DNA of 64,000 nucleotides from Patescibacteria group bacterium (lineage in GTDB: Bacteria > Patescibacteriota > Saccharimonadia > UBA4664 > SCTI01), in contig SCTI01000001.1 of the NCBI GenBank assembly GCA_004297735.1, forward strand, positions 51,467 to 115,466, written 5' to 3'. The position numbers and the translations under genes were made by a program. Of this stretch, positions 5,745 to 64,000 are shown in pieces. Numbering within the stretch: position 1 is the stretch's first letter; every line of letters begins with the position of its first letter. The notes under the pieces were generated by a model. The model did no database searches and had not been told where the DNA came from. It saw only the letters and a list, made by a program, of their open reading frames with translations.

Positions 5745-5796
5745 GGTATAGCTCTAGCCGACAAAATAGGGTATAGTGGTGAGTCGTAGCCACCAA

Positions 5797-5882
5797 GGGC
5801 GAGTGGTGAAATGGTAGACACGCTAGATTCAGGTTCTAGTGAGCGCAAGCTCGTGGAGGTTCAAGTCCTCTCTCGCCCACCA
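5797..5882 (+). tRNA. tRNA-Leu(CAG)
   Basis: Acceptor GGGCGAG/CTCGCCC. Anticodon arm CTAGA-TTCAGGT-TCTAG. Long variable arm. T-arm GGAGG-TTCAAGT-CCTCT. Encoded CCA. Confidence 0.9.
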
Positions 5883-5936
5883 TTGCACTTATGCTTACCG
5901 TGTGAGATTATTTGAAATAATAAACATGGTTGCCAA

Positions 5937-6641
5937 ATGCTAAGAAAACAAAATGGGTTTACGGCCGTAGAAGGCGTCTTAGTAGTGTTGCTAATTGTAG
6001 CGATCGGCGCCGCCGGCTACTTTGCTTACCAAGTCAGAACTCAATCATCCGATCCAACCAGCCAGTCGCAGCCAAAAGCTAAAGCGGCACCCAAGGTCGA
6101 GCTAACGACTTATAGCTCAAAAACAATGCCTGGTGTCAGCTTTCAATATCCGCAAAACTGGAAGGTTGAGGAGAAAGTTGCCGGCGACCCAGGGAATGAG
6201 GGTGATGTTCCGTCTGCCGAAAAACTTACTCTAAGTAGTCCATCAGGAGCGGTTAAACTTACTTGGACTTCTGGGCTTGTTGGTATCGGCGGAGCTTGTA
6301 ATGATGGCTCCTATCCCGGTGATGATTTAGCTCTGTGCACCCTATATGAAGTTATTAACAGCCATAAGCTAAAAAATGCCAACCTATACTCTGTATCAGG
6401 TGTTTACACGCAGGTTGGCGATAGCCCGACGGCCTACCTGGCCATACAGGCAAGTGATGGCGTCATTAAGACGCGCCGCAGCTTTTCGGGCGAGTTAGTT
6501 AGCGGCGGCGAGGCGGGGGCTTACATGCTGGTAGTGTCACCTGTAGCAAAGTCTGCTACCAAGGCCGAGGCAGAGGCTGCACTCAAGAGTAGCGACATGG
6601 TTACCGGCCAAGCCATTATCGATTCATTTACTAAAAAGTAA
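5937..6641 (+). CDS. type IV pilin-like protein (class III signal peptide)
   Basis: N-terminus MLRKQNG|FTAVEG with a G at the prepilin cleavage site, F+1 and E+5, followed by a hydrophobic helix. Confidence 0.55.
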   Translation: MLRKQNGFTAVEGVLVVLLIVAIGAAGYFAYQVRTQSSDPTSQSQPKAKAAPKVELTTYSSKTMPGVSFQYPQNWKVEEKVAGDPGNEGDVPSAEKLTLSSPSGAVKLTWTSGLVGIGGACNDGSYPGDDLALCTLYEVINSHKLKNANLYSVSGVYTQVGDSPTAYLAIQASDGVIKTRRSFSGELVSGGEAGAYMLVVSPVAKSATKAEAEAALKSSDMVTGQAIIDSFTKK

Positions 6642-6733
6642 ATTTTAAAAGGCCCGACCTCCAAAAAGACTTGACACCACAAATAGTGGGTGTAGGGTAA
6701 ACGTAAGCACTATAAAATAAAAAGTTGCTATAA

Positions 6734-9076
6734 ATGCCCAAAAAATCAACAGGACTACTTAGAAGACGGCGATTTCGCAAGCGTGATCTGTTGTTCGTGG
6801 CGGCATTATTTTCGCTGGTTGGCATGCTGGCAATTATTAGCACCTTTGCAGCCACCTTTACTACGGTTGAGGCCGGCACTCTAAAGTACAACAAAGTAGC
6901 TAATATTGCTGGTCAAAACGGCGGCAGAGCGGCAGCCATGTACTGGGGCGCTACCGGCACCGGCAATGTTAGTTTGCCCACCAAAACTACCAGTGTAACG
7001 GTTTACGCTCGCGGCGATCAGTGTCAGGGCGCTCCGCAGATGACGTTAACGATTGACGGTCAACAGGTGGCTAACCAGGCGGTTACCGCCACCGGGTGGA
7101 AGGCTTACACCGTACCGGTAAATATTGAGGCCGGCAGTCATGCGCTAGCGGTTGGGTTTACCAATGATGCGGTGGTGGCAAATGGCAACAAAAACAACGT
7201 CACGACCTACTGCGATCGTAACCTGTACGTTGACCGTTTAGTATTTACCGGCCTGGACAAGCCGGCCACCTTAAGCACCAATGTAGAGGCGGAAATAATG
7301 AGCTCAAACTTGAGTCAGGTGGTAGATGGCTCGGTTAAGGACGGTAAGGCTCGAGCCTTTTACCAAAACGCGACTGCCAGTACCGGTGTGATACTGCCAA
7401 ACGCGGTCAACCAGATCAAGCTGGTAGCTAAGGGTGATCAGTGCCAGGGCGCACCAAACGTAAAGGTGACGGTTGATGGTAAGTCGGTGGTTAGTCGAGC
7501 CGTTACGGGGCGAAACTGGGGTGAGTATGTCTCGACGGTTAACATTCCAGCCGGTAGCCACAAGGTTGGCATTGAGTTTACCAATGATGTTTATATTGCC
7601 GCCACGCGCTGTGATCGCAACCTGTACGTTGACCGCTTGGTACTAACCGGACCGGCACCGGCACCAAAACCTCCAGTGGCTCAACCAGCCGCTAGTAAGC
7701 CGCCGACACCAACGGTGCCAACCACTCCAGCCGCTCAATCGGTAGCAACCTACAGCCCAACGGCACCGTATACCATCATCATGATTGGTTGGCGGCCGTA
7801 CGAAAAAGAGTATGCCCAGCTGGCGAATACCAAGACCAACTTGGTTTATCGATCGATTGAACGTACACCAAACGGCCAAGGCAAGTGGCCCAAGCTGGAT
7901 CAGTGGGAGGCAGCCAACTACCGTTACTACAACAATGTGGCTGGATCCGACTGGGCTTCGAGCGGGGCCGGTGGTGCCTGTAAGAACATCAACCTGGCCT
8001 ACATGGACCAGCGTTACAGCGACGAGTTGCTCCAGCGTAAAGGCAATATTGGCTACTATATGCACGAGATGGTGGCGCTGAATGCGGCTTGTAACGGCTG
8101 GAACTGGACGGCGGCGGCTCAATCAATCGACTGGGCCAGGATTAACAACTGGATGCTGCAAGCTAAGGCGCAAAACAAAAAGGTGATATGGTCGGAGCCG
8201 GCTCAGGGCTGGAACGCCATCCGCTCAAACCCGACCTTCCAGGCGGTAGCGCCGTACTGGAAAGAGTCAATGGTGCCAATGTTTGCCACCAACTTCCGCA
8301 CCCCATCTTTCAATCATGTGCCATACGCTCGCGATGGAGCCACGGCGGTGGCGCGACAGTTTGGCACCCCAGTAGGTGAAAGCGTGCAGTCCTGGTACTT
8401 CCGTGAAGGCTACAACGACTTAACCACCAGTGCTACGGTCGGCTTGGCCAACTACGGGCTAGAGGTTGGTTCAACCTATTACCAAATTGAAGGTACCTAT
8501 GGCGATATGGCTTGGGGCACCGACTACATGAAGGGCATTCTGGCCTTTAGCAAAACATTAGGTCCGGCCGGCAGCCCGGTGCCTGCTCCCGTGGTGGTTG
8601 TGCCTCCGGTGGCGGCGTCGCAGTCAACCGTCGCTAAAAAGCCGCTCTACCAGCTTTGGAACAACGTTACTTCGGACCACATGTACACCACTAGCGAGAC
8701 CGAAAAGAATCAACTTATTGCCACTAAAGGTTACGTCGACCAAGGTATCGCCGGGTACGTTTACGAAAAATCGGTACCAGGCAGCGTACCGCTATATCGC
8801 CTTTATTCGGCTAATTTAACCGATCACTTTTACACCAACAGCGAAACCCAGCGCAGCCAGGCTAAAGCCGGCGGCGGCCGGTATGTCGATGAGGGTATAA
8901 CCGGGTACGTTATGACCAGCCAGGTATCTGGTACCACACCACTGTACCAACTTTATAGCGGCGGGTATCCGGATCACTTTTACACCACTCAAACCTGGTC
9001 GCGTGATAGCGCCAAAGCCTCGTTCCGCAAGTATGTTGAGCAGGGCAATGCCGGCTACGTCTTTGTTAAACCCTAG
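6734..9076 (+). CDS. large secreted multidomain protein: two duplicated beta-sandwich (CBM-like) modules, a Pro-rich linker, a central domain and three C-terminal DUF5648-like repeats
   Basis: An internal module of about 130 aa containing CDRNLYVDRLV is duplicated. Linker PAPAPKPP. Three repeats of PLYxLYS...DHFYTTS...GYV. Signal anchor at the N-terminus. Confidence 0.7.
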   Translation: MPKKSTGLLRRRRFRKRDLLFVAALFSLVGMLAIISTFAATFTTVEAGTLKYNKVANIAGQNGGRAAAMYWGATGTGNVSLPTKTTSVTVYARGDQCQGAPQMTLTIDGQQVANQAVTATGWKAYTVPVNIEAGSHALAVGFTNDAVVANGNKNNVTTYCDRNLYVDRLVFTGLDKPATLSTNVEAEIMSSNLSQVVDGSVKDGKARAFYQNATASTGVILPNAVNQIKLVAKGDQCQGAPNVKVTVDGKSVVSRAVTGRNWGEYVSTVNIPAGSHKVGIEFTNDVYIAATRCDRNLYVDRLVLTGPAPAPKPPVAQPAASKPPTPTVPTTPAAQSVATYSPTAPYTIIMIGWRPYEKEYAQLANTKTNLVYRSIERTPNGQGKWPKLDQWEAANYRYYNNVAGSDWASSGAGGACKNINLAYMDQRYSDELLQRKGNIGYYMHEMVALNAACNGWNWTAAAQSIDWARINNWMLQAKAQNKKVIWSEPAQGWNAIRSNPTFQAVAPYWKESMVPMFATNFRTPSFNHVPYARDGATAVARQFGTPVGESVQSWYFREGYNDLTTSATVGLANYGLEVGSTYYQIEGTYGDMAWGTDYMKGILAFSKTLGPAGSPVPAPVVVVPPVAASQSTVAKKPLYQLWNNVTSDHMYTTSETEKNQLIATKGYVDQGIAGYVYEKSVPGSVPLYRLYSANLTDHFYTNSETQRSQAKAGGGRYVDEGITGYVMTSQVSGTTPLYQLYSGGYPDHFYTTQTWSRDSAKASFRKYVEQGNAGYVFVKP

Positions 9077-13819: not shown

Positions 13820-13906
13820 GCGGATGTGGTGGAATGGTAGACACGCCAGCTTGAGGGGCTGGTGGCCGTATAGGTCGTGGAGGTTCAAGTCCTCTCATCC
13901 GCACCA
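13820..13906 (+). tRNA. tRNA-Leu(GAG)
   Basis: Acceptor GCGGATG/CATCCGC. Anticodon arm CCAGC-TTGAGGG-GCTGG. Long variable arm. Encoded CCA. Confidence 0.9.
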
Positions 13907-14039
13907 GGAATTATTAAGATCGAACCAATGTGATTATGCTTGCAAAGCAGCTTAAAATGCCTCATAACTAATGCAACTTCTCGTGTCCGCAAATCTGCGT
14001 GCTGCTCAGTACGCAGCGAGCGACCACGAGGAGACGCAC

Positions 14040-19997: not shown

Positions 19998-20011
19998 CCG
20001 TATCTAGAACA

Positions 20012-20050
20012 AAGAGGCCGAGCGTCATGCTCGGCCTCTAAGCGTTTTTA
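20012..20050 (+). terminator. strong intrinsic terminator (AGAGGCCGAGC-GTCAT-GCTCGGCCTCT plus TTTTTA)
   Basis: 11-bp perfect stem followed by a T-run. Confidence 0.75.
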
Positions 20051-20066
20051 TTACTGGTAGCTAGTG

Positions 20067-20255
20067 TTACTTCCAGCCGAAGGTCTGGCCTAATATCCAC
20101 ACGGTAATCGCAATGGAAATAAAGAACAGACCTAGACCTACTGGGCTACCCCAGCTGAACCACGAGCCCCACGAGCGCCAGTGCTTGAGGCTCTCGACGT
20201 GGCTCCAGTCGTACTCTTTTTCGTAGTCTCTGGGACTTTTACTTTCGTTTGCCAT
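20067..20255 (-). CDS. small membrane protein (62 aa)
   Basis: W-rich N-terminus and one TM helix. Confidence 0.4.
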   Translation of the reverse strand: MANESKSPRDYEKEYDWSHVESLKHWRSWGSWFSWGSPVGLGLFFISIAITVWILGQTFGWK

Positions 20256-20466
20256 GGTTTTCTTTGTTATTTAATGAGAGTCTGTCGCCAAACGGAGTCG
20301 ACTATGTCCGTGCGGTGCAGGCTTACCCATTCATTTGCAGGGGTCTTTGCGTCCGTCCATGGTGTTCGCCGAATGAGTGGCGCATGGATGCAAGGGACGA
20401 CCCGATGCTGATATTTAAGCAAGAAAGTAGGGGAGTTTCAAGCGTTTACGGGTATAAGCGCAATAG

Positions 20467-20703
20467 CTAGTCACTAACTGTATGTATTGGCGGAATCGTT
20501 AGAGTAACGTCCATTAGGCTTGCGTACAGAATGGCAGTACGGAGTAGTTCTGGCTCATGAGCGAATGCGCCAAAGGTAAACATTGCGTAATCTAGCTTAT
20601 TTTTCCTGGCGTCTTGAATGAAGTCAATGTAGGTCCCAGCGTCATTTTCTTTTAGGTAGGCTTCACAGTCTTCTATGTTGTTGGGTAAATCAATTGAGCT
20701 CAT
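20467..20703 (-). CDS. hypothetical protein (78 aa)
   Basis: ORF with an upstream GGATAAC RBS-like sequence. Confidence 0.4.
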   Translation of the reverse strand: MSSIDLPNNIEDCEAYLKENDAGTYIDFIQDARKNKLDYAMFTFGAFAHEPELLRTAILYASLMDVTLTIPPIHTVSD

Positions 20704-20723
20704 ACTACTAGTTATCCTTTCGG

Positions 20724-23992: not shown

Positions 23993-24018
23993 ACCGAAGC
24001 GTCAAATAATTCCTGGTG
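23993..24018. repeat. right copy of the 26-bp direct repeat, overlapping the 3' end of tRNA-Gly
   Basis: See 22214-22239. Confidence 0.6.
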
Positions 24019-25462: not shown

Positions 25463-25487
25463 TTAATTATATTGTCCGGGAGAGTGG

Positions 25488-25563
25488 TGGAATGGTATAC
25501 ACGACGGACTTAAAATCCGTTGCCTTTACGGGCTTGAGGGTTCGAGTCCCTCCTCTCCCACCA
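25488..25563 (+). tRNA. tRNA-Leu(TAA)
   Basis: Acceptor GGGAGAG/CTCTCCC. Anticodon arm ACGGA-CTTAAAA-TCCGT. Long variable arm. Encoded CCA. Confidence 0.9.
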
Positions 25564-25598
25564 GGAATTATTCATTAATTGCGATTGCAGGCTGCATA

Positions 25599-25653
25599 TA
25601 TTAAGGTAGAGCTACTTCTAACATTCTAGGTGAGAGAAAGTTGGTGGAGCACA
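25599..25653 (+). repeat. copy 1 of a perfect 55-bp direct repeat (TATTAAGGTAGAGCTACTTCTAACATTCTAGGTGAGAGAAAGTTGGTGGAGCACA) ending at the start codon of ORF 25653
   Basis: Identical to 27485-27539. Contains a putative promoter and RBS (GGTGGAG). Confidence 0.9.
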
Positions 25654-27484: not shown

Positions 27485-27539
27485 TATTAAGGTAGAGCTA
27501 CTTCTAACATTCTAGGTGAGAGAAAGTTGGTGGAGCACA
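27485..27539 (+). repeat. copy 2 of the perfect 55-bp direct repeat, ending at the start codon of ORF 27540
   Basis: Identical to 25599-25653. Confidence 0.9.
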
Positions 27540-29496: not shown

Positions 29497-30381
29497 ATGT
29501 ACACCGCCGTTAGTTCGAACAAGCGTAAAACCGTGCTATTAATGGCTCTGTTTGTGGCCTTTATCGCGACTTTGGGTTATGTGGTCGGGGTGATTAGCGA
29601 TAGTCCCGGGCTGCTTTACTTTTTTGGGATTGGGGCATTGGTGTACTCGATCGTAACCTACTTTTTGTCGGCTAAAATAGCGCTGGGAATGTCGGGCGCC
29701 CGCGAGATTAAAAAGTCGCAAGCTCCTGAGCTGTATCGGCTGGTCGAGAACTTGAGTATTACCGCCGGTTTACCAATGCCAAAGGTGTACATTATTGAAG
29801 ATAGCTCGCCCAACGCCTTTGCGACCGGGCGCGACCCCAAGCATGCCGCGGTTGCGGTGACCAGTGGGTTGCTAGAACGCCTGGAAAAGGATGAGCTGCA
29901 GGGAGTCTTGGCGCACGAGATGGCCCATGTTGGTAACTATGATATTCGGCTAATGAGCGTGGTAACCGCGCTGGTGAGTATTGTGTCGATTATTAGCGAC
30001 CTGCTGTTTCGAGTGAGTTTGTTTAACGGAGATGACGATAGCCCCAATCCATTGATGCTGGCAGTGGGGATTGTCCTAGCGATCCTAGCGCCGTTAATTG
30101 CTCTGGTGATTCAGCTGGCAATTTCGCGTCGGCGTGAGTATTTAGCAGATGCTACCGCGGTGCAGCTAACCCGTTACCCCGATGGTTTGGCCAAGGCGCT
30201 AGAAAAAATATCGCACGGCGAGCCAATGCACCGGACCTCGTCGGCCACCGCTCATTTATACATCGCTAATCCGCTAGGTGGTGGCAAGGGTATTGGCGGA
30301 GCGGTAGCAGGACTGTTTAGTACTCATCCACCAATCGAGGATCGAGTGGCACGCTTAAGACAGATGGGAGATGTGGTATGA
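29497..30381 (+). CDS. htpX: zinc metalloprotease HtpX (M48)
   Basis: HEMAHV zinc-binding motif. Four TM helices. Confidence 0.9.
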   Translation: MYTAVSSNKRKTVLLMALFVAFIATLGYVVGVISDSPGLLYFFGIGALVYSIVTYFLSAKIALGMSGAREIKKSQAPELYRLVENLSITAGLPMPKVYIIEDSSPNAFATGRDPKHAAVAVTSGLLERLEKDELQGVLAHEMAHVGNYDIRLMSVVTALVSIVSIISDLLFRVSLFNGDDDSPNPLMLAVGIVLAILAPLIALVIQLAISRRREYLADATAVQLTRYPDGLAKALEKISHGEPMHRTSSATAHLYIANPLGGGKGIGGAVAGLFSTHPPIEDRVARLRQMGDVV

Positions 30382-31127: not shown

Positions 31128-33140
<2,013 letters not shown>

Positions 33141-33554
33141 TCGCGCAATTTATAAGGCCTAAATAGCTAAGCGGCGACGCAAATGGTATGAACTCTTCCC
33201 ACCGAAGTGGGCAACTGTTACCATTCGCGCCGCCGCATCTCGCCCGGATTGTCGCGAGGAGGGACTAGGCGAGAAGTTGAAAGCTGTCGGTTGTCTAGGG
33301 GGTAGACCTGACTGTGCGTGGTGGGTCAACCGGCGACCTGCGCCCGCAACCCTACGTCTCGCTCAGCAAGCAGCTCCGACAGCAAGAGACCCGATGGGTT
33401 TTGCCCTGGCATTCTCTTTCCCTTGGCTGCACAAGGATTTTGGGGACGTCCGCTTGATGGGTGGGGGTTCCCTCGCACGGAAGTATTTTTACAATAGGCT
33501 TATTGATTGATGTTGTCAATTGGTGGTAACTATATAAATTATTGTAATAATGCA

Positions 33555-33580
33555 CAAAAAAGCGCTACCGAAGTAGCGCG
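33555..33580 (-). terminator. intrinsic terminator on the minus strand (GCGCTAC-CGAA-GTAGCGC followed by TTTTTTG)
   Basis: Hairpin with a run of six T's when read on the minus strand. This implies a minus-strand transcript crossing 33580-33850 where no ORF is credible. Confidence 0.5.
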
Positions 33581-33899
33581 TAGCTTAAGCGAAGCCTAGG
33601 CTGTAAGTTGGTGACCCGGGTGGTGCCGGCGATGCAAGGACAAGTCCAAGAATCGACCGACACCACCTGAGCGTCTCCCTCCCCTGGGAGGCCCGCTGGG
33701 CGGGCACGCTTGTGAAGTTTTGTGCACCCCGGGGCGGCTCTTGGGAGAGGCTCCCCGGGGTGCTGATCGAGGTGTCGGGCGAGTGGCCGGGAGCTGTTCA
33801 AGAACTCGGTGCTCGCTCGAGACTCACTCATTTTGCCTCTAAGTGCCATTTACTGTCAACCCTTTGCTCAATCTGGCTGCCATCAGGTACAATATGTTT

Positions 33900-34187
33900 A
33901 TGTCGAAAATTACCCCGGACGAGGTTCGCCGCGTCGCTGAATTAGCCCATATTGGCTTGGCCGAGGATCAAATTGATCACTTTGCGCGCGAGTTAGATCA
34001 AATCGTTGGCTTCGTTGAACAGTTACAAAAAGTTGATGTTAGTGGCATAGAACCAACCGACCAGGTTACCGGTTTAGTGGATGTATGGCGTGAGGACGAG
34101 GTTAAACCCGGTCTGTCTCATGATGACCTCAAGCTCAATGCTCCCGATTGGAAAGACGGACAGTTTAAGGTAAAGAGGGTGCTATAG
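33900..34187 (+). CDS. gatC: Asp/Glu-tRNA amidotransferase subunit C
   Basis: MSKITPDEVRRVAELAHIGL... is a GatC pattern. TACAAT 6 nt before the ATG. Confidence 0.8.
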   Translation: MSKITPDEVRRVAELAHIGLAEDQIDHFARELDQIVGFVEQLQKVDVSGIEPTDQVTGLVDVWREDEVKPGLSHDDLKLNAPDWKDGQFKVKRVL

Positions 34188-35638
34188 TGGCCGATCTTAA
34201 GCGACCAATTGCCGAGTTGGCCGGTGAGGTGCAAGCCGGCAAGCTAACAGCGGTTGAGTTGGTCAAAGCCAGCCTGTCAGCGATTGACGGCGCCGAAGAT
34301 CATCACGCCATCCTCGAAAAGAACGAGGAGGCGTTGGCGCGCGCCCAAGAGATTGATGAGCGTGTTAAAAAGGGCGACAAGGTCGGCCGCTTAGCCGGTA
34401 TTCCCTATATCGCCAAGGATAACTTTTTAACTAAGGGTACGCATACCACCGCTTCTAGCAACATCCTAAAGCCATTCAAGGCGCCATATCAGTCAACCGT
34501 TATAGAGAGGTTGGAGGATGAGGGAGCAGTCATGGTTGGTAAGGCCAACCTGGATGCGTTTGCGCACGGCTCTTCAACCGAAAATAGCGATTTTGGCCCC
34601 ACCAAAAACCCGCACGATGCAACGCGAACTCCGGGCGGTTCCTCCGGTGGCTCAGCTGCCGCCGTGGCCTTGGGTCTGGCCTGCTTTGCGCTGGGTACCG
34701 ATACCGGTGGTTCAATCCGTCAGCCAGCGGCCTTTACCGGCACGGTTGGGCTCAAGCCAACCTATGGCTTGGTTAGTAGGTATGGAGTTGTGGCGATGGG
34801 TAGCTCGGTAGACGTAATTGGTCCGCTGACCAACTCGGTCGCAGACGCGGCGCTGGTGCTAGATGTTATGGCCGGCCAAGATTCAGCCGATGCCACTACC
34901 ATTGAGCGTGATTCGGAATCCTACACTCGGATCAAAGGCGACCTTAAGGGTAAAAAAGTCGGTTTGATAAAGGAGTATCTGGGTGAAGGAATTGATCCAA
35001 AGGTAAAGGCTTCAATTATGCAGGCCGCCGAGCAGATGAAGCAGGCGGGAGCCGTAGTCGAGGAGGTTTCGCTGCCATCGACCGATTTGGGCCTGGCTGC
35101 ATACTATATTTTGGTTCCAGCCGAGGTTAGCTCAAACCTGGCCAGATACGATGGGATTCGTTATGGTCACAGCTCAAAGGATGCTACCACCATGCACGAC
35201 ACCTTTCTTAAAAGTCGCAATGAGGGATTTGGCGACGAGGCTAAGCGCCGCATTATGATCGGCACCTATGTGCTATCTAGCGGTTACTATGATGCCTACT
35301 ACAAACGGGCGCAAAAGGTTCGCACCGTGCTACGAAATGAGTTTAACCAGGCGTTTGAGCGCTACGATTTGCTGCTTGGGCCAACCACGCCAACACCGGC
35401 CTTTAAGCTGGGCGAAAAAAACCACGATCCGCTATCGATGTATCTGTCGGATGTTTACACCGTGGTGGTGAACCTGGTCGGTTGTTGCTCGATCAGTCTA
35501 CCAAGCGGCTTGGTTGATGGCCTACCGGTGGGCTTACAGCTGATTGGCCCACAACTGGGCGAGCGAGAGCTACTTGGCTCAGCCGTAGGGGTTGAAGAGC
35601 TATTGGGTGAAAACTCCGCTAAGGAGGTGACGCTATGA
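34187..35638 (+). CDS. gatA: Asp/Glu-tRNA amidotransferase subunit A
   Basis: Amidase signature (GGSSGGSAAAVA), Ser-cisSer-Lys triad context. Confidence 0.9.
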   Translation: MADLKRPIAELAGEVQAGKLTAVELVKASLSAIDGAEDHHAILEKNEEALARAQEIDERVKKGDKVGRLAGIPYIAKDNFLTKGTHTTASSNILKPFKAPYQSTVIERLEDEGAVMVGKANLDAFAHGSSTENSDFGPTKNPHDATRTPGGSSGGSAAAVALGLACFALGTDTGGSIRQPAAFTGTVGLKPTYGLVSRYGVVAMGSSVDVIGPLTNSVADAALVLDVMAGQDSADATTIERDSESYTRIKGDLKGKKVGLIKEYLGEGIDPKVKASIMQAAEQMKQAGAVVEEVSLPSTDLGLAAYYILVPAEVSSNLARYDGIRYGHSSKDATTMHDTFLKSRNEGFGDEAKRRIMIGTYVLSSGYYDAYYKRAQKVRTVLRNEFNQAFERYDLLLGPTTPTPAFKLGEKNHDPLSMYLSDVYTVVVNLVGCCSISLPSGLVDGLPVGLQLIGPQLGERELLGSAVGVEELLGENSAKEVTL

Positions 35639-36078
35639 TTTGGATGCTAATCGCGGCCTTAGCGCTTGGCTTGTTGCTGATTGCTGTAATCAGTGCCGAC
35701 CAGTCTAAAAAGCCGAAAAAGCGCAACGGTAAACGTCGTTACGCCAACCGGATCGGGTCGGTCGACAAAGAGTTTGTGCAAACTCGTTGGGTGGCCATCG
35801 AGGGTATGGCCAGCGGCGGGGGCAGCTTGCGCGACGCCGTCAGCGAGGCCGATAAGCTGGTTGATTATGTGCTCAAGCAGTCTGGAGTACCTGGTGAGAC
35901 TATGGGCGAACGGCTTAAGAGCGGTGGCGACCGGTTTAGCGACATTAATGCTATCTGGCGGGCTCATAAGCTGCGCAATGCCTTGGCGCACGAGGCCAAG
36001 TTCGACCTGGTTCCAAGCATGGCCCGCGAGGCCATTGCCGACTTCCGCCAAGGCCTTAAAGATCTGGGGGCACTATGA
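35635..36078 (+). CDS. hypothetical membrane-anchored protein inserted between gatA and gatB
   Basis: N-terminal TM, basic stretch, then a soluble domain. Confidence 0.5.
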   Translation: MIWMLIAALALGLLLIAVISADQSKKPKKRNGKRRYANRIGSVDKEFVQTRWVAIEGMASGGGSLRDAVSEADKLVDYVLKQSGVPGETMGERLKSGGDRFSDINAIWRAHKLRNALAHEAKFDLVPSMAREAIADFRQGLKDLGAL

Positions 36079-63819: not shown

Positions 63820-63905
63820 GGGCGAGTGGTGAAATGGTAGACACGCTAGCCTTAGGAGCTAGTGGGGGAAACCCCGTGGAGGTTCAAGTCCTCTCTCGCC
63901 CACCA
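63820..63905 (+). tRNA. tRNA-Leu(TAG)
   Basis: Acceptor GGGCGAG/CTCGCCC. Anticodon arm CTAGC-CTTAGGA-GCTAG. Long variable arm. Encoded CCA. Confidence 0.9.
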
Positions 63906-64000
63906 GGAATTATTGTAAAAACGCTAATTTGTGTTATAATTAAGTCATTGATACGCAGTCAAGCACGCAAATCGACTAGGGGGATGATGTCAGAGCAAGT

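Follow-up and report, generated by a model that had tools for sequence, protein, structure and literature searches.

What occupies the 759 bp that separate the end of ligA (33140) from the start of gatC (33900) in the window, namely the whole 64-kb stretch of DNA analyzed here? CPR genomes are ~1 Mb in size and comprise very little non-coding DNA. The initial annotation described the gap as GC-rich and devoid of a credible ORF, in a genome in which spacers are otherwise tens of bp, and proposed structured non-coding RNA(s) or a decayed islet as its content. The median spacer is indeed 64 bp, albeit several other gaps of 200-700 bp appeared in a crude ORF map of the window. The high GC content applies to two blocks (0.59-0.67 versus 0.52 in the window) but not to the AT-rich spacer of 70 bp between them. 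The absence of a credible ORF was confirmed, as no coding signal was detected and the six-frame ORFs had no Pfam match. In the six-frame comparison, the similarity of the gap ORFs to the homologous regions switched between frames and was scattered over all frames of both strands. The gap sequence was not repeated, even in part, elsewhere in the 64-kb window, and neither tandem nor interspaced repeats were found within the gap, ruling out a TIGR or CRISPR-like array.

Judging from the sequence comparisons described below, we regard the gap as very probably composed of two back-to-back genes on the minus strand, both for structured non-coding RNAs, here termed RNA A and RNA B. The predicted features are as follows.

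33864..33893, plus strand: gatC promoter; -35 TTGCTC 33864-33869, 18-bp spacer, -10 TACAAT 33888-33893
33830..33859, minus strand: RNA A promoter (promoter scan); -35 TTGACA 33859-33854, 18-bp spacer, -10 CAAAAT 33835-33830
33556..33823, minus strand: RNA A, ~268 nt; 5' end predicted from the promoter
33724..33763, minus strand: GC-helix hairpin of RNA A; covarying stem, constant apical CCUCUCCC
33556..33723, minus strand: conserved 3' core of RNA A; consensus fold, covariance model R1
33491..33519, minus strand: RNA B promoter; -35 TTGACA 33519-33514, 17-bp spacer, -10 TATTGT 33496-33491
33155..33484, minus strand: RNA B, ~330 nt; 5' end predicted from the promoter, 3' end from the T-rich tail
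33421..33436, minus strand: RNA B hairpin CCUUG-UGCAGC-CAAGG; conserved hexaloop (U/A)G(C/U)AGC
33240..33278, minus strand: RNA B hairpin CUUCUCGCC...GGGCGAGAUG; internal loop presenting UCCCUCCUC 33264-33256
33171..33236, minus strand: RNA B terminal hairpin; long, with a UUCG-capped inner stem and the T-rich tail 33170-33156

The early reading of the gap as structured RNA is supported by compensatory changes, conserved promoters, and terminators, while the second, separately promoted gene in the left half (RNA B) had been overlooked. The decayed-islet alternative did not survive the comparison, in which there was neither frame conservation nor a protein family and the helices displayed compensatory changes. 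Comparative sequence analysis supports the predicted strand, promoters, and terminators, as well as the non-coding nature, the conserved structure, and the restricted distribution of the two RNAs, and we infer that both are transcribed. The minus-strand fold of 33550-33830 had a z-score of -5.2 (0 of 200 shuffles equally stable), and that of 33141-33490 had a z-score of -3.3 (0 of 100). Promoter-like sites amounted to nine on both strands of the whole 64-kb window, and two of the nine are located within the gap.

The arrangement of A and B upstream of gatC was detected in the window and at the loci L081/L162, L161, L163, and L167/L168. In the four additional lineages, LigA is ~83% identical to that of the window or, for L167, GatC is 89% identical. 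Homologues were located solely by walking from the relatives of LigA and GatC. Across these loci, the promoters, including the -35/-10 spacing of B, were kept and the flanks have diverged; likewise, the helices were kept despite the divergence of the sequences. Promoters, terminators, the absence of an ORF, and a common layout in five lineages together correspond to stand-alone sRNA genes ending in intrinsic terminators.

The promoter of RNA A is placed back to back with that of gatC. Its counterparts at the same place read TTGACG-17-GAAAAT in L081 and TTGACG-17-CAAAAT in L167, and the -35/-10 pair is kept in three lineages (the window, L081/L162, and L167). From its 5' end, RNA A comprises a variable domain of hairpins, the hairpin with CCUCUCCC at its apex, the conserved 3' core, and the terminator; homologues were recognized in L081, L162, L161, L163, and L167. 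Its length is ~268 nt in the window and ~480 nt in L167, with hairpins gained or lost in the 5' half. The 11-bp GC helix reported initially is formed by GCACCCCGGGG (33724-33734) and CCCCGGGGTGC (33753-33763), and extends to 18 nt at 89%. Its stem is GCACCCCGGGG in the window, UACCUCCGGGG in L081, and GCGCCACCGGG in L167, each accompanied by a matching 3' arm, and CCUCUCCC is kept at the apex wherever that segment was available.

The core of RNA A begins with a hairpin, in which the relatives have a GNRA loop, followed by an unpaired purine tract (GGGGAGGGAGA, 33684-33674; GAGGGGAGGAGAA in the relatives), a long hairpin of ~24 bp (about 33612-33669), and a small hairpin preceding the terminator. 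The last of these is the minus-strand terminator noticed in the initial annotation: GCGCTACTTCGGTAGCGC with a UUCG loop (33579-33562) and then T6, or U6 in the RNA (33561-33556), identical in sequence in all five lineages. The transcript of ~280 nt that had been expected to run from near the gatC promoter to this terminator corresponds to RNA A, which is ~268 nt long and has a conserved promoter and terminator. The covariation analysis with related genomes, which had been suggested as a check, was conducted on alignment A6 fitted to covariance model R1; 95.5% of the cells were paired and 28 of the 54 pairs were changed on both sides, in statistics that cover few sequences and five independent lineages possessing both A and B. 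None of 500 shuffles was paired equally well, and slid controls were ~40% paired. In the A core, 45 G·U cells were found versus 7 A·C cells, an excess showing that the RNA is read from the minus strand. U-tracts following hairpins were found on the minus strand only. The R1 model also matched L164/L165 (37.8 bits) and L166 (29 bits). Two further candidates in A were rejected. One is a small peptide encoded after the SD-like tract, of which the frame (33 codons in the window) is not conserved since it stops after four codons in L081, and the other is a long-range pairing of 33653-33664 with 33771-33782, which is not kept in L081.

RNA B is predicted to start ~70 bp beyond RNA A from a promoter inside the AT-rich spacer (33485-33555), and its terminal hairpin adjoins the stop codon of ligA. 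In the five lineages, this promoter reads TTGAC[AG], 17 bp, and then TATTGT, TATCGT, TATTCT, or TAGTAT (for L167, a regular expression gave the -35, and the -10 was picked out by eye). The helices of B bear compensatory changes across the homologues; for instance, 4 of the 6 pairs in the CCUUG-UGCAGC-CAAGG stem were changed on both sides. RNA B may also contain a pseudoknot, in which the loop GCAGC pairs with GCUGC (33374-33370). The two segments are 100% paired in six sequences with one compensatory change, that in L161 (GUAGC with GCUAC). The CU-rich UCCCUCCUC loop is kept in four of the five lineages (the window, L161, L163, and L167) but absent in L081/L162. The 18-bp imperfect helix described initially (33171-33188 with 33219-33236, 89% complementary) and the hairpin CCCAC-CGAA-GTGGG inside it (33198-33211) were both recovered. 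What had been missed is that this helix probably acts as the terminator of RNA B; a comparable long hairpin is present in every B homologue, where it precedes CUUUUUU, CUUUUAC, or CUUUUUAC.

A and B are, in our view, real new families of non-coding RNA of a familiar kind, limited to a narrow clade. Neither matched a described RNA family. An Rfam search had been recommended for this gap; when the whole window was searched at the gathering threshold and the gap at E≤10, only tRNAs were found, all of them elsewhere. Among the related loci searched against Rfam (29 at the gathering threshold and 10 at E-value thresholds), the matches in the gaps were limited to sub-threshold ones driven by terminators and to RsmW (see below). 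The missing Rfam match is one half of what the initial annotation named as refuting its reading, the other half being absent transcription; we consider that the comparative evidence outweighs it. Searching 80 genome loci with the gap by blastn and nhmmer yielded no match, and the nhmmer profiles of A and B matched only the six loci used to build them. A mobile-element origin was rejected, as no blastn match was found in phage and plasmid collections and the A-core motif had no exact match in viral contigs.

All of the close relatives examined possess an ORF-less region with promoter and terminator signals on the minus strand upstream of gatC, and the occupant of this slot ranges in our sample from one to three units and from ~420 to ~1300 nt. 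In the relatives with LigA 68-73% identical to that of the window, the RNAs at the same spot bear no detectable sequence similarity to A and B, which speaks against an essential role with deep conservation. The R1 model matched L001/L002 at 20-21 bits, mostly through the terminator and the penultimate hairpin, and an alignment of B to the single RNA of L001/L002 was discarded as unconvincing evidence of homology. The RNAs next to gatC appear to have been replaced rapidly at a fixed genomic position, which poses a small evolutionary puzzle.

To our knowledge, no regulatory RNA has been characterized in CPR bacteria. RNAs A and B, which occupy about 1% of the 64-kb stretch, can be put forward as concrete candidates for post-transcriptional regulators in Saccharimonadales and would supply two new seed alignments to RNA family databases. 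Spurious hypothetical ORFs are called on such RNAs, and recognizing the RNAs would mend the annotation. According to one TM7x transcriptome paper, TM7x has no validated small RNAs, and our search of the literature for small or structured RNAs of CPR bacteria or Saccharibacteria returned nothing relevant.

How, then, could the two RNAs work? The explanation that we prefer, with slightly more confidence than doubt, is that the two genes encode trans-acting regulatory RNAs and are transcribed away from gatC. RNA A would start at a sigma-70-type promoter and end at the intrinsic terminator with the UUCG loop, and RNA B would start at its own promoter in the AT-rich spacer and end in the long terminator hairpin. 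The CU-rich loops (CCUCUCCC of A and UCCCUCCUC of B) would pair with purine-rich Shine-Dalgarno regions and block the translation of target mRNAs, and the purine tract of A would provide a second interaction site for RNA or protein. Each of the two RNAs consists of a series of GC-rich hairpins, of which the stems are maintained by compensatory substitutions, and the parts constant in sequence are mostly unpaired, namely the CU-rich apical and internal loops and the purine tract. Shine-Dalgarno sequences such as AAGGAGGUGA are found at some genes of the window. Since GC-rich RNA commonly contains short CU-rich or purine-rich runs, the motif argument is weak by itself, and the anti-Shine-Dalgarno pairing is put forward here as a tentative mechanism. 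The conserved purine tract in A is likely a second functional site. A sponge-like pairing between the purine tract of A and the CU-rich loop of B was unsupported, given the B homologues of L081/L162 without this loop, and RNAduplex on the whole of A and B was uninformative because full-length duplexes were returned. We know of no RNA chaperone in this group.

The closest precedents for the pairing mechanism are RNAIII and RsaE of S. aureus and RoxS of B. subtilis, base-pairing sRNAs of Gram-positive bacteria with C-rich loops. They are similar to A and B in being stand-alone genes with their own promoters, intrinsic terminators, and several stable hairpins, and RNAIII is also long with many hairpins. 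Their conserved unpaired loops of the UCCC type are complementary to the Shine-Dalgarno sequence, and the loops of A and B are CU-rich. On the other hand, A and B display no sequence or covariance-model similarity to these sRNAs, their host is a CPR bacterium, and the CU-rich loop is not shared by all B homologues.

Alternatively, the RNAs may be real and act via a protein, either like CsrB/RsmZ or 6S/Ms1, as decoys, sponges, or scaffolds, or as the RNA of a small ribonucleoprotein, with the purine tract and the GNRA/UUCG hairpins as sites of protein or tertiary contacts. We consider this reading possible but rather doubtful. It is consistent with the modular architecture of many hairpins, including the changing set of hairpins in the 5' half of A, with the conserved unpaired purine tract between hairpins, with GNRA loops that vary between GGAA and GAAA as tetraloops should, and with the candidate pseudoknot in B. 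CsrB, RsmZ, and RsmW (Rfam clan CL00106) are also multi-hairpin, fast-evolving, stand-alone RNAs, in which the number of hairpins varies among relatives, and weak RsmW-like matches were found in L161 and L167 (25 and 26 bits; E of 2.9 and 0.63). However, these scores are far under the gathering score of 52, and the matching segment is absent from RNA A of the window. Neither were GGA motifs, typical of a Csr-type sponge, enriched (A had 4-11 per 315-553 nt and B 2-7, near a rough estimate from composition), and the loops are of the GNRA or UUCG types. 6S RNA and Ms1 resemble A and B as structured, stand-alone RNAs of the abundant type (180-300 nt) with little sequence conservation between phyla, whereas the MFE and consensus folds of A and B are strings of separate local hairpins instead of a single long irregular helix opened by a central bubble, and no Rfam match to 6S RNA was found. 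No gene for a partner protein is linked to the locus.

In a bolder reading, which we regard as improbable, B and possibly A would represent a new compact class of pseudoknotted RNA with many GNRA/UUCG loops and with an activity of its own or a dedicated partner specific to host-dependent ultra-small bacteria (e.g., as part of a ribonucleoprotein, or as an RNA that is delivered to the host or senses it). In that case, the position beside gatC would be a conserved "RNA locus" with a repeatedly replaced occupant; among the genomes with LigA 68-83% identical to that of the window, the occupants bear no detectable sequence similarity to one another. OLE, ROOL, GOLLD, and the raiA motif resemble A and B in their GC richness, extensive structure, occasional pseudoknots, and length of several hundred nt, and in having been found by comparative genomics with their functions unknown at discovery. 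A and B differ from them in the absence of an Rfam match, smaller size, lower sequence conservation, and occurrence in a narrow clade only.

It is very unlikely that one or both units are an extremely divergent housekeeping RNA (RNase P RNA, SRP RNA, tmRNA, or 6S RNA) that covariance models failed to recognize. The sizes (270-560 nt across lineages) and the strong-looking promoters fit such an RNA, as does the ORF-less region with minus-strand signals that is present here in all close relatives that were examined; a 10-nt identity, GCAGCCAAGG, to E. coli 4.5S RNA is attributable to chance. Nevertheless, the remark that RNase P, tmRNA, and SRP motifs were not recognizable by eye held up against both Rfam (E≤10 in 33000-34000) and ARAGORN. 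The RNaseP_bact_a/b models had no match at E≤10 in 33000-34000 and none in the gaps of the relatives, and strands of the P4 type (GGAAAGUCC / ACAGAAnCCGGCUUA, the P4-strand consensus of RNase P) were not seen by eye. ARAGORN found neither tmRNA nor tRNA in 32900-34100, with no tmRNA match in Rfam either. For SRP RNA, there was no match at E≤10, and the GCAGCC of B lies in a hairpin hexaloop, not in the internal loop of domain IV. In the gaps of the relatives, nothing reached the thresholds, and such housekeeping RNAs stay recognizable between genomes with LigA 70-83% identical.

Equally hard to maintain is a non-functional gap composed of decayed protein genes, such as an ABC-transporter pair, or of accumulated GC-rich palindromes. 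The ligA-gatC junction is variable, an ABC_tran and ABC2_membrane pair being present there in relatives, and hypothetical ORFs have been called in the homologous regions. The relatives with the ABC pair, however, retain A and B, which lie between that pair and gatC; thus, the gap is not a leftover of the ABC genes. A protein remnant, named in the initial annotation as the finding that would count against its reading, was detected neither by the six-frame comparison nor by Pfam, and no reading frame is conserved. Also at odds with decay are the compensatory changes, the conserved spacing of the promoters, the invariance of the terminator, and the lack of a second copy of any gap segment in the window.

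A plus-strand leader regulating the gatCAB operon in cis (as a riboswitch, T-box, or attenuator) has the least to commend it and is scarcely credible: the gap lies directly upstream of gatC and its plus strand folds well (z = -4.5), as would the reverse complement of any structured RNA, but the left half on the plus strand folds no better than shuffles (z = -1.8), no T-box or riboswitch model matched, the terminator U-tracts and the G·U excess place the structure on the strand opposite gatC, and the conserved gatC promoter leaves no room for a leader. With exactly 6 nt between the -10 of this promoter and the ATG (33900), the gatC mRNA is predicted to be leaderless, and the gap cannot be its leader. 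The initial annotation had rightly placed a transcript start near the gatC promoter region but missed this leaderlessness. The same pattern of a -10 hexamer, 6 nt, and ATG was found in L081, L001, and L002, and a matching -10-like hexamer is present at the gatC-proximal edge of the gap in L164, L169, and L173. Between the window and L081, the gatC promoter block is almost invariant.

The gap of 759 bp between ligA and gatC comprises two blocks with GC contents of 0.59-0.67 and an AT-rich spacer of ~70 bp between them, in a window of 0.52 GC overall. An 18-bp helix, a GC helix and a minus-strand terminator had been marked in the initial annotation, and all three were found where it had placed them. 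On the minus strand, the predicted folds of both blocks were far more stable than those of dinucleotide-shuffled sequences (33550-33830, z = -5.2; 33141-33490, z = -3.3); plus-strand folding of the left block was unremarkable (z = -1.8). No repeat of the gap sequence was found elsewhere in the 64-kb window. Altogether, we regard the gap as harboring two predicted minus-strand RNA genes, A and B, laid out as follows.

31128-33140, plus strand: ligA, left flank
33171-33188 and 33219-33236: 18-bp imperfect inverted repeat enclosing the CCCAC-CGAA-GTGGG hairpin
33484 to 33155 (approximate), minus strand: RNA B
33519-33491, minus strand: predicted promoter of unit B, TTGACA-17-TATTGT
33579-33562, minus strand: terminator hairpin GCGCTACTTCGGTAGCGC, six T directly after
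33724-33734 and 33753-33763: GC helix
33823 to 33556 (approximate), minus strand: RNA A
33859-33830, minus strand: predicted promoter of unit A, TTGACA-18-CAAAAT
33864-33893, plus strand: predicted gatC promoter, TTGCTC-18-TACAAT, back to back with the A promoter
33900-34187, plus strand: gatC, right flank

The scan for known RNA families suggested in the initial annotation was run with Rfam 15, which detected only tRNAs in the whole window at gathering thresholds and nothing over 33000-34000 at E≤10. ARAGORN found no tRNA or tmRNA in the gap region, Pfam matched none of the six-frame ORFs of the gap, and no relative of the gap DNA was present in phage and plasmid collections. ORF similarity among the homologous regions occurred in all frames of both strands, switching frame from genome to genome, and the lengths of their alignment gaps were not multiples of three. 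Judging from these sequence patterns, the RNAs predicted in the gap are non-coding. Gene callers annotated hypothetical proteins of 73-179 aa over the RNA regions of relatives (loci L162, 4540-4761; L167, 2616-2924; L173, 2283-2822; L169, 2698-2955), all without a Pfam match; the 94-aa minus-strand ORF of the window (33565-33849) is an artefact of the same kind.

LigA placed the window in Saccharimonadales (Patescibacteria/CPR), with uncultured Saccharimonadales MAGs as the best genome matches (72-73% identity), and direct blastn and nhmmer searches of the gap against the loci of these MAGs returned nothing. Closer relatives were obtained by a metagenome scan (L081, LigA 83%) and by exact-protein look-ups of LigA and GatC relatives. 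The layout of the window was common to five independent lineages, namely the window, L081/L162, L161, L163 and L167/L168. In L161, L163 and L167, a pair of ABC-transporter genes lies upstream of the RNA region, directly after ligA in the former two. Thus, the RNA region keeps company with gatC rather than ligA, and is not the wreck of transporter genes. An ABC_tran and ABC2_membrane pair between ligA and the RNA region was seen in some close relatives (L161, L163 and L164-L168).

Across the whole window, both strands included, only nine sites reached comparable promoter quality, and two of them lie inside the gap. The unit A promoter recurred in the same place in relatives (TTGACG-17-GAAAAT in L081; TTGACG-17-CAAAAT in L167), and the unit ends in a UUCG terminator that is sequence-identical across the five lineages, although identity in the RNA around it is only 55-70%. 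Unit B retained a -35 element plus a -10-like hexamer 17 bp downstream in all lineages, and its end is marked by a long hairpin with a T-rich tail behind it. For gatC, the -10 hexamer (TACAAT, TAGAAT or TAAAAT) is located exactly 6 nt from the ATG in the window (33864-33902), L081 (~5790-5828), L001 (~6480-6523) and L002 (~6455-6499), and no Shine-Dalgarno sequence precedes gatC in these four; in L164, L169 and L173, the edge of the gap carries a matching -10-like hexamer. The promoter block, whose spacer holds a small palindrome (TGGC-N-GCCA), is nearly invariant between the window and L081. As this arrangement recurs in relatives, gatC is very probably leaderless, and a gap upstream of a leaderless gene cannot be its 5' UTR.

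We fitted an alignment of the conserved 3' core of RNA A to a covariance model built on it (R1); in these seven sequences only, 95.5% of cells were paired and 28 of the 54 pairs had changed on both sides. None of 500 shuffles paired as well, and slid controls paired at ~40%. The alignment contained 45 G·U versus 7 A·C cells, a bias that only a minus-strand RNA would be expected to produce. The 5' hairpin domain of A is variable, with extra hairpins in relatives (~480 nt in total in L167), and the GC helix corresponds to a covarying stem in A (GCACCCCGGGG, UACCUCCGGGG, GCGCCACCGGG) with a constant apex CCUCUCCC. Compensatory changes were also found in the helices of B. The predicted elements, in 5' to 3' order, are listed below.

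A core, 1: hairpin, with a GNRA loop (GGAA/GAAA) in relatives
A core, 2: unpaired purine tract GAGGGGAGGAGAA, in the window GGGGAGGGAGA
A core, 3: long hairpin, ~24 bp
A core, 4: small hairpin
A core, 5: terminator
B, 1: 5' hairpin
B, 2: hairpin with conserved hexaloop (U/A)G(C/U)AGC
B, 3: multibranch domain with closing helix CUGUCGG / CCGACAG
B, 4: hairpin whose internal loop presents UCCCUCCUC, in four of the five lineages (missing in L081/L162)
B, 5: the 18-bp helix, as predicted terminator hairpin

The GCAGC of the B hexaloop is complementary to a GCUGC ~50 nt downstream in the window, and farther away in relatives. Both sides changed together in L161 (GUAGC and GCUAC); since this is a single compensatory event, the pseudoknot is a candidate only.

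R1 detected the A core in L164/L165 (37.8 bits) and L166 (29 bits), where it lies at the 3' terminus of one longer RNA (~560 nt); these genomes (LigA 80-82% identical to the window) lack RNA B. The matches in L001/L002 were weak and came mostly from the terminator and the penultimate hairpin, and none was obtained in 100 more distant Patescibacteria loci. In L001, L002, L169 and L173 (LigA 68-73%), the same slot is GC-rich (0.50-0.60) and ORF-less and shows promoter and terminator signals on the minus strand, but no sequence similarity to either A or B could be detected, and Rfam gave no match. By eye, one unit of ~420 nt was apparent in L001/L002, one of ~530 nt in L173, and, in L169 (1613-3000), three successive RNA-like units, each with promoter and terminator, packed into 1388 bp. 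The junction in more distant groups contained proteins, tRNA genes (L058) or only tens of bp. The ligA-gatC junction is a variable slot. In L058, a Parcubacteria genome, the tRNA genes are two on the minus strand (6611-6829), one apparently intron-containing.

From these comparisons it can be concluded securely that A and B are two predicted ncRNA genes, each standing alone, structured and ending in a terminator, and that both are restricted to a narrow clade. As RNA families they are new, but the kind of system they represent is already familiar. For the mechanism, the most useful clue lies in what is conserved without being paired, namely the CU-rich loops of both RNAs and the purine tract of A. 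Several regulatory RNAs of Gram-positive bacteria work through CU-rich loops that are complementary to ribosome-binding sites of the GGAGG type, and some of the genes in the window genome have sites of this kind (e.g., AAGGAGGUGA upstream of a 147-aa ORF and AAGAGGA upstream of the one at 29497). On these grounds, we tentatively favor that A and B would act in trans as translational repressors, their CU-rich loops pairing with the Shine-Dalgarno sequences of mRNAs. A protein-binding, scaffold or decoy role is the main rival and only slightly less plausible. A divergent housekeeping RNA is unlikely, as are decayed genes, against which stands the persistence of the RNA region beside gatC in relatives carrying the ABC pair, and a leader of gatC, itself very probably leaderless.

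To our knowledge, no RNA regulation has been characterized in CPR bacteria, and A and B are concrete, well-delimited candidates for it. Comparative pipelines routinely produce many such candidates, and the narrow clade limits the value of these two RNAs of putative regulatory function. It is curious that RNAs have been replaced again and again at a single slot next to gatC.

Besides the gap, an ORF of ~143-148 aa without a Pfam match is conserved between gatA and gatB (window, 35635-36078; L167, 4742-5188; L169, 4697-5128; L173, 4720-5160), so that the gatCAB operon is interrupted in this clade; some relatives have an additional hydrolase or His_Phos_1 gene there. The second-largest stretch of the window without a long ORF (19998-20723) contains only short minus-strand ORFs of 62 aa (hydrophobic-looking) and 78 aa, and no Rfam match. 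A perfect 55-nt direct repeat (25599-25653 and 27485-27539, 1886 bp apart), starts 39 bp past a tRNA gene (25478-25560). The ORFs between its two copies (189, 243, 104 and 72 aa) have no evident function, and the repeat resembles the att sites of a small element inserted next to the tRNA. Several tRNA genes of the window encode CCA followed by an identical short flank, GGAATTATT (5882-5891, 13906-13915, 25563-25572 and 63905-63914; reverse complement, 24005-24016), which could serve all of them as a signal for processing or termination.
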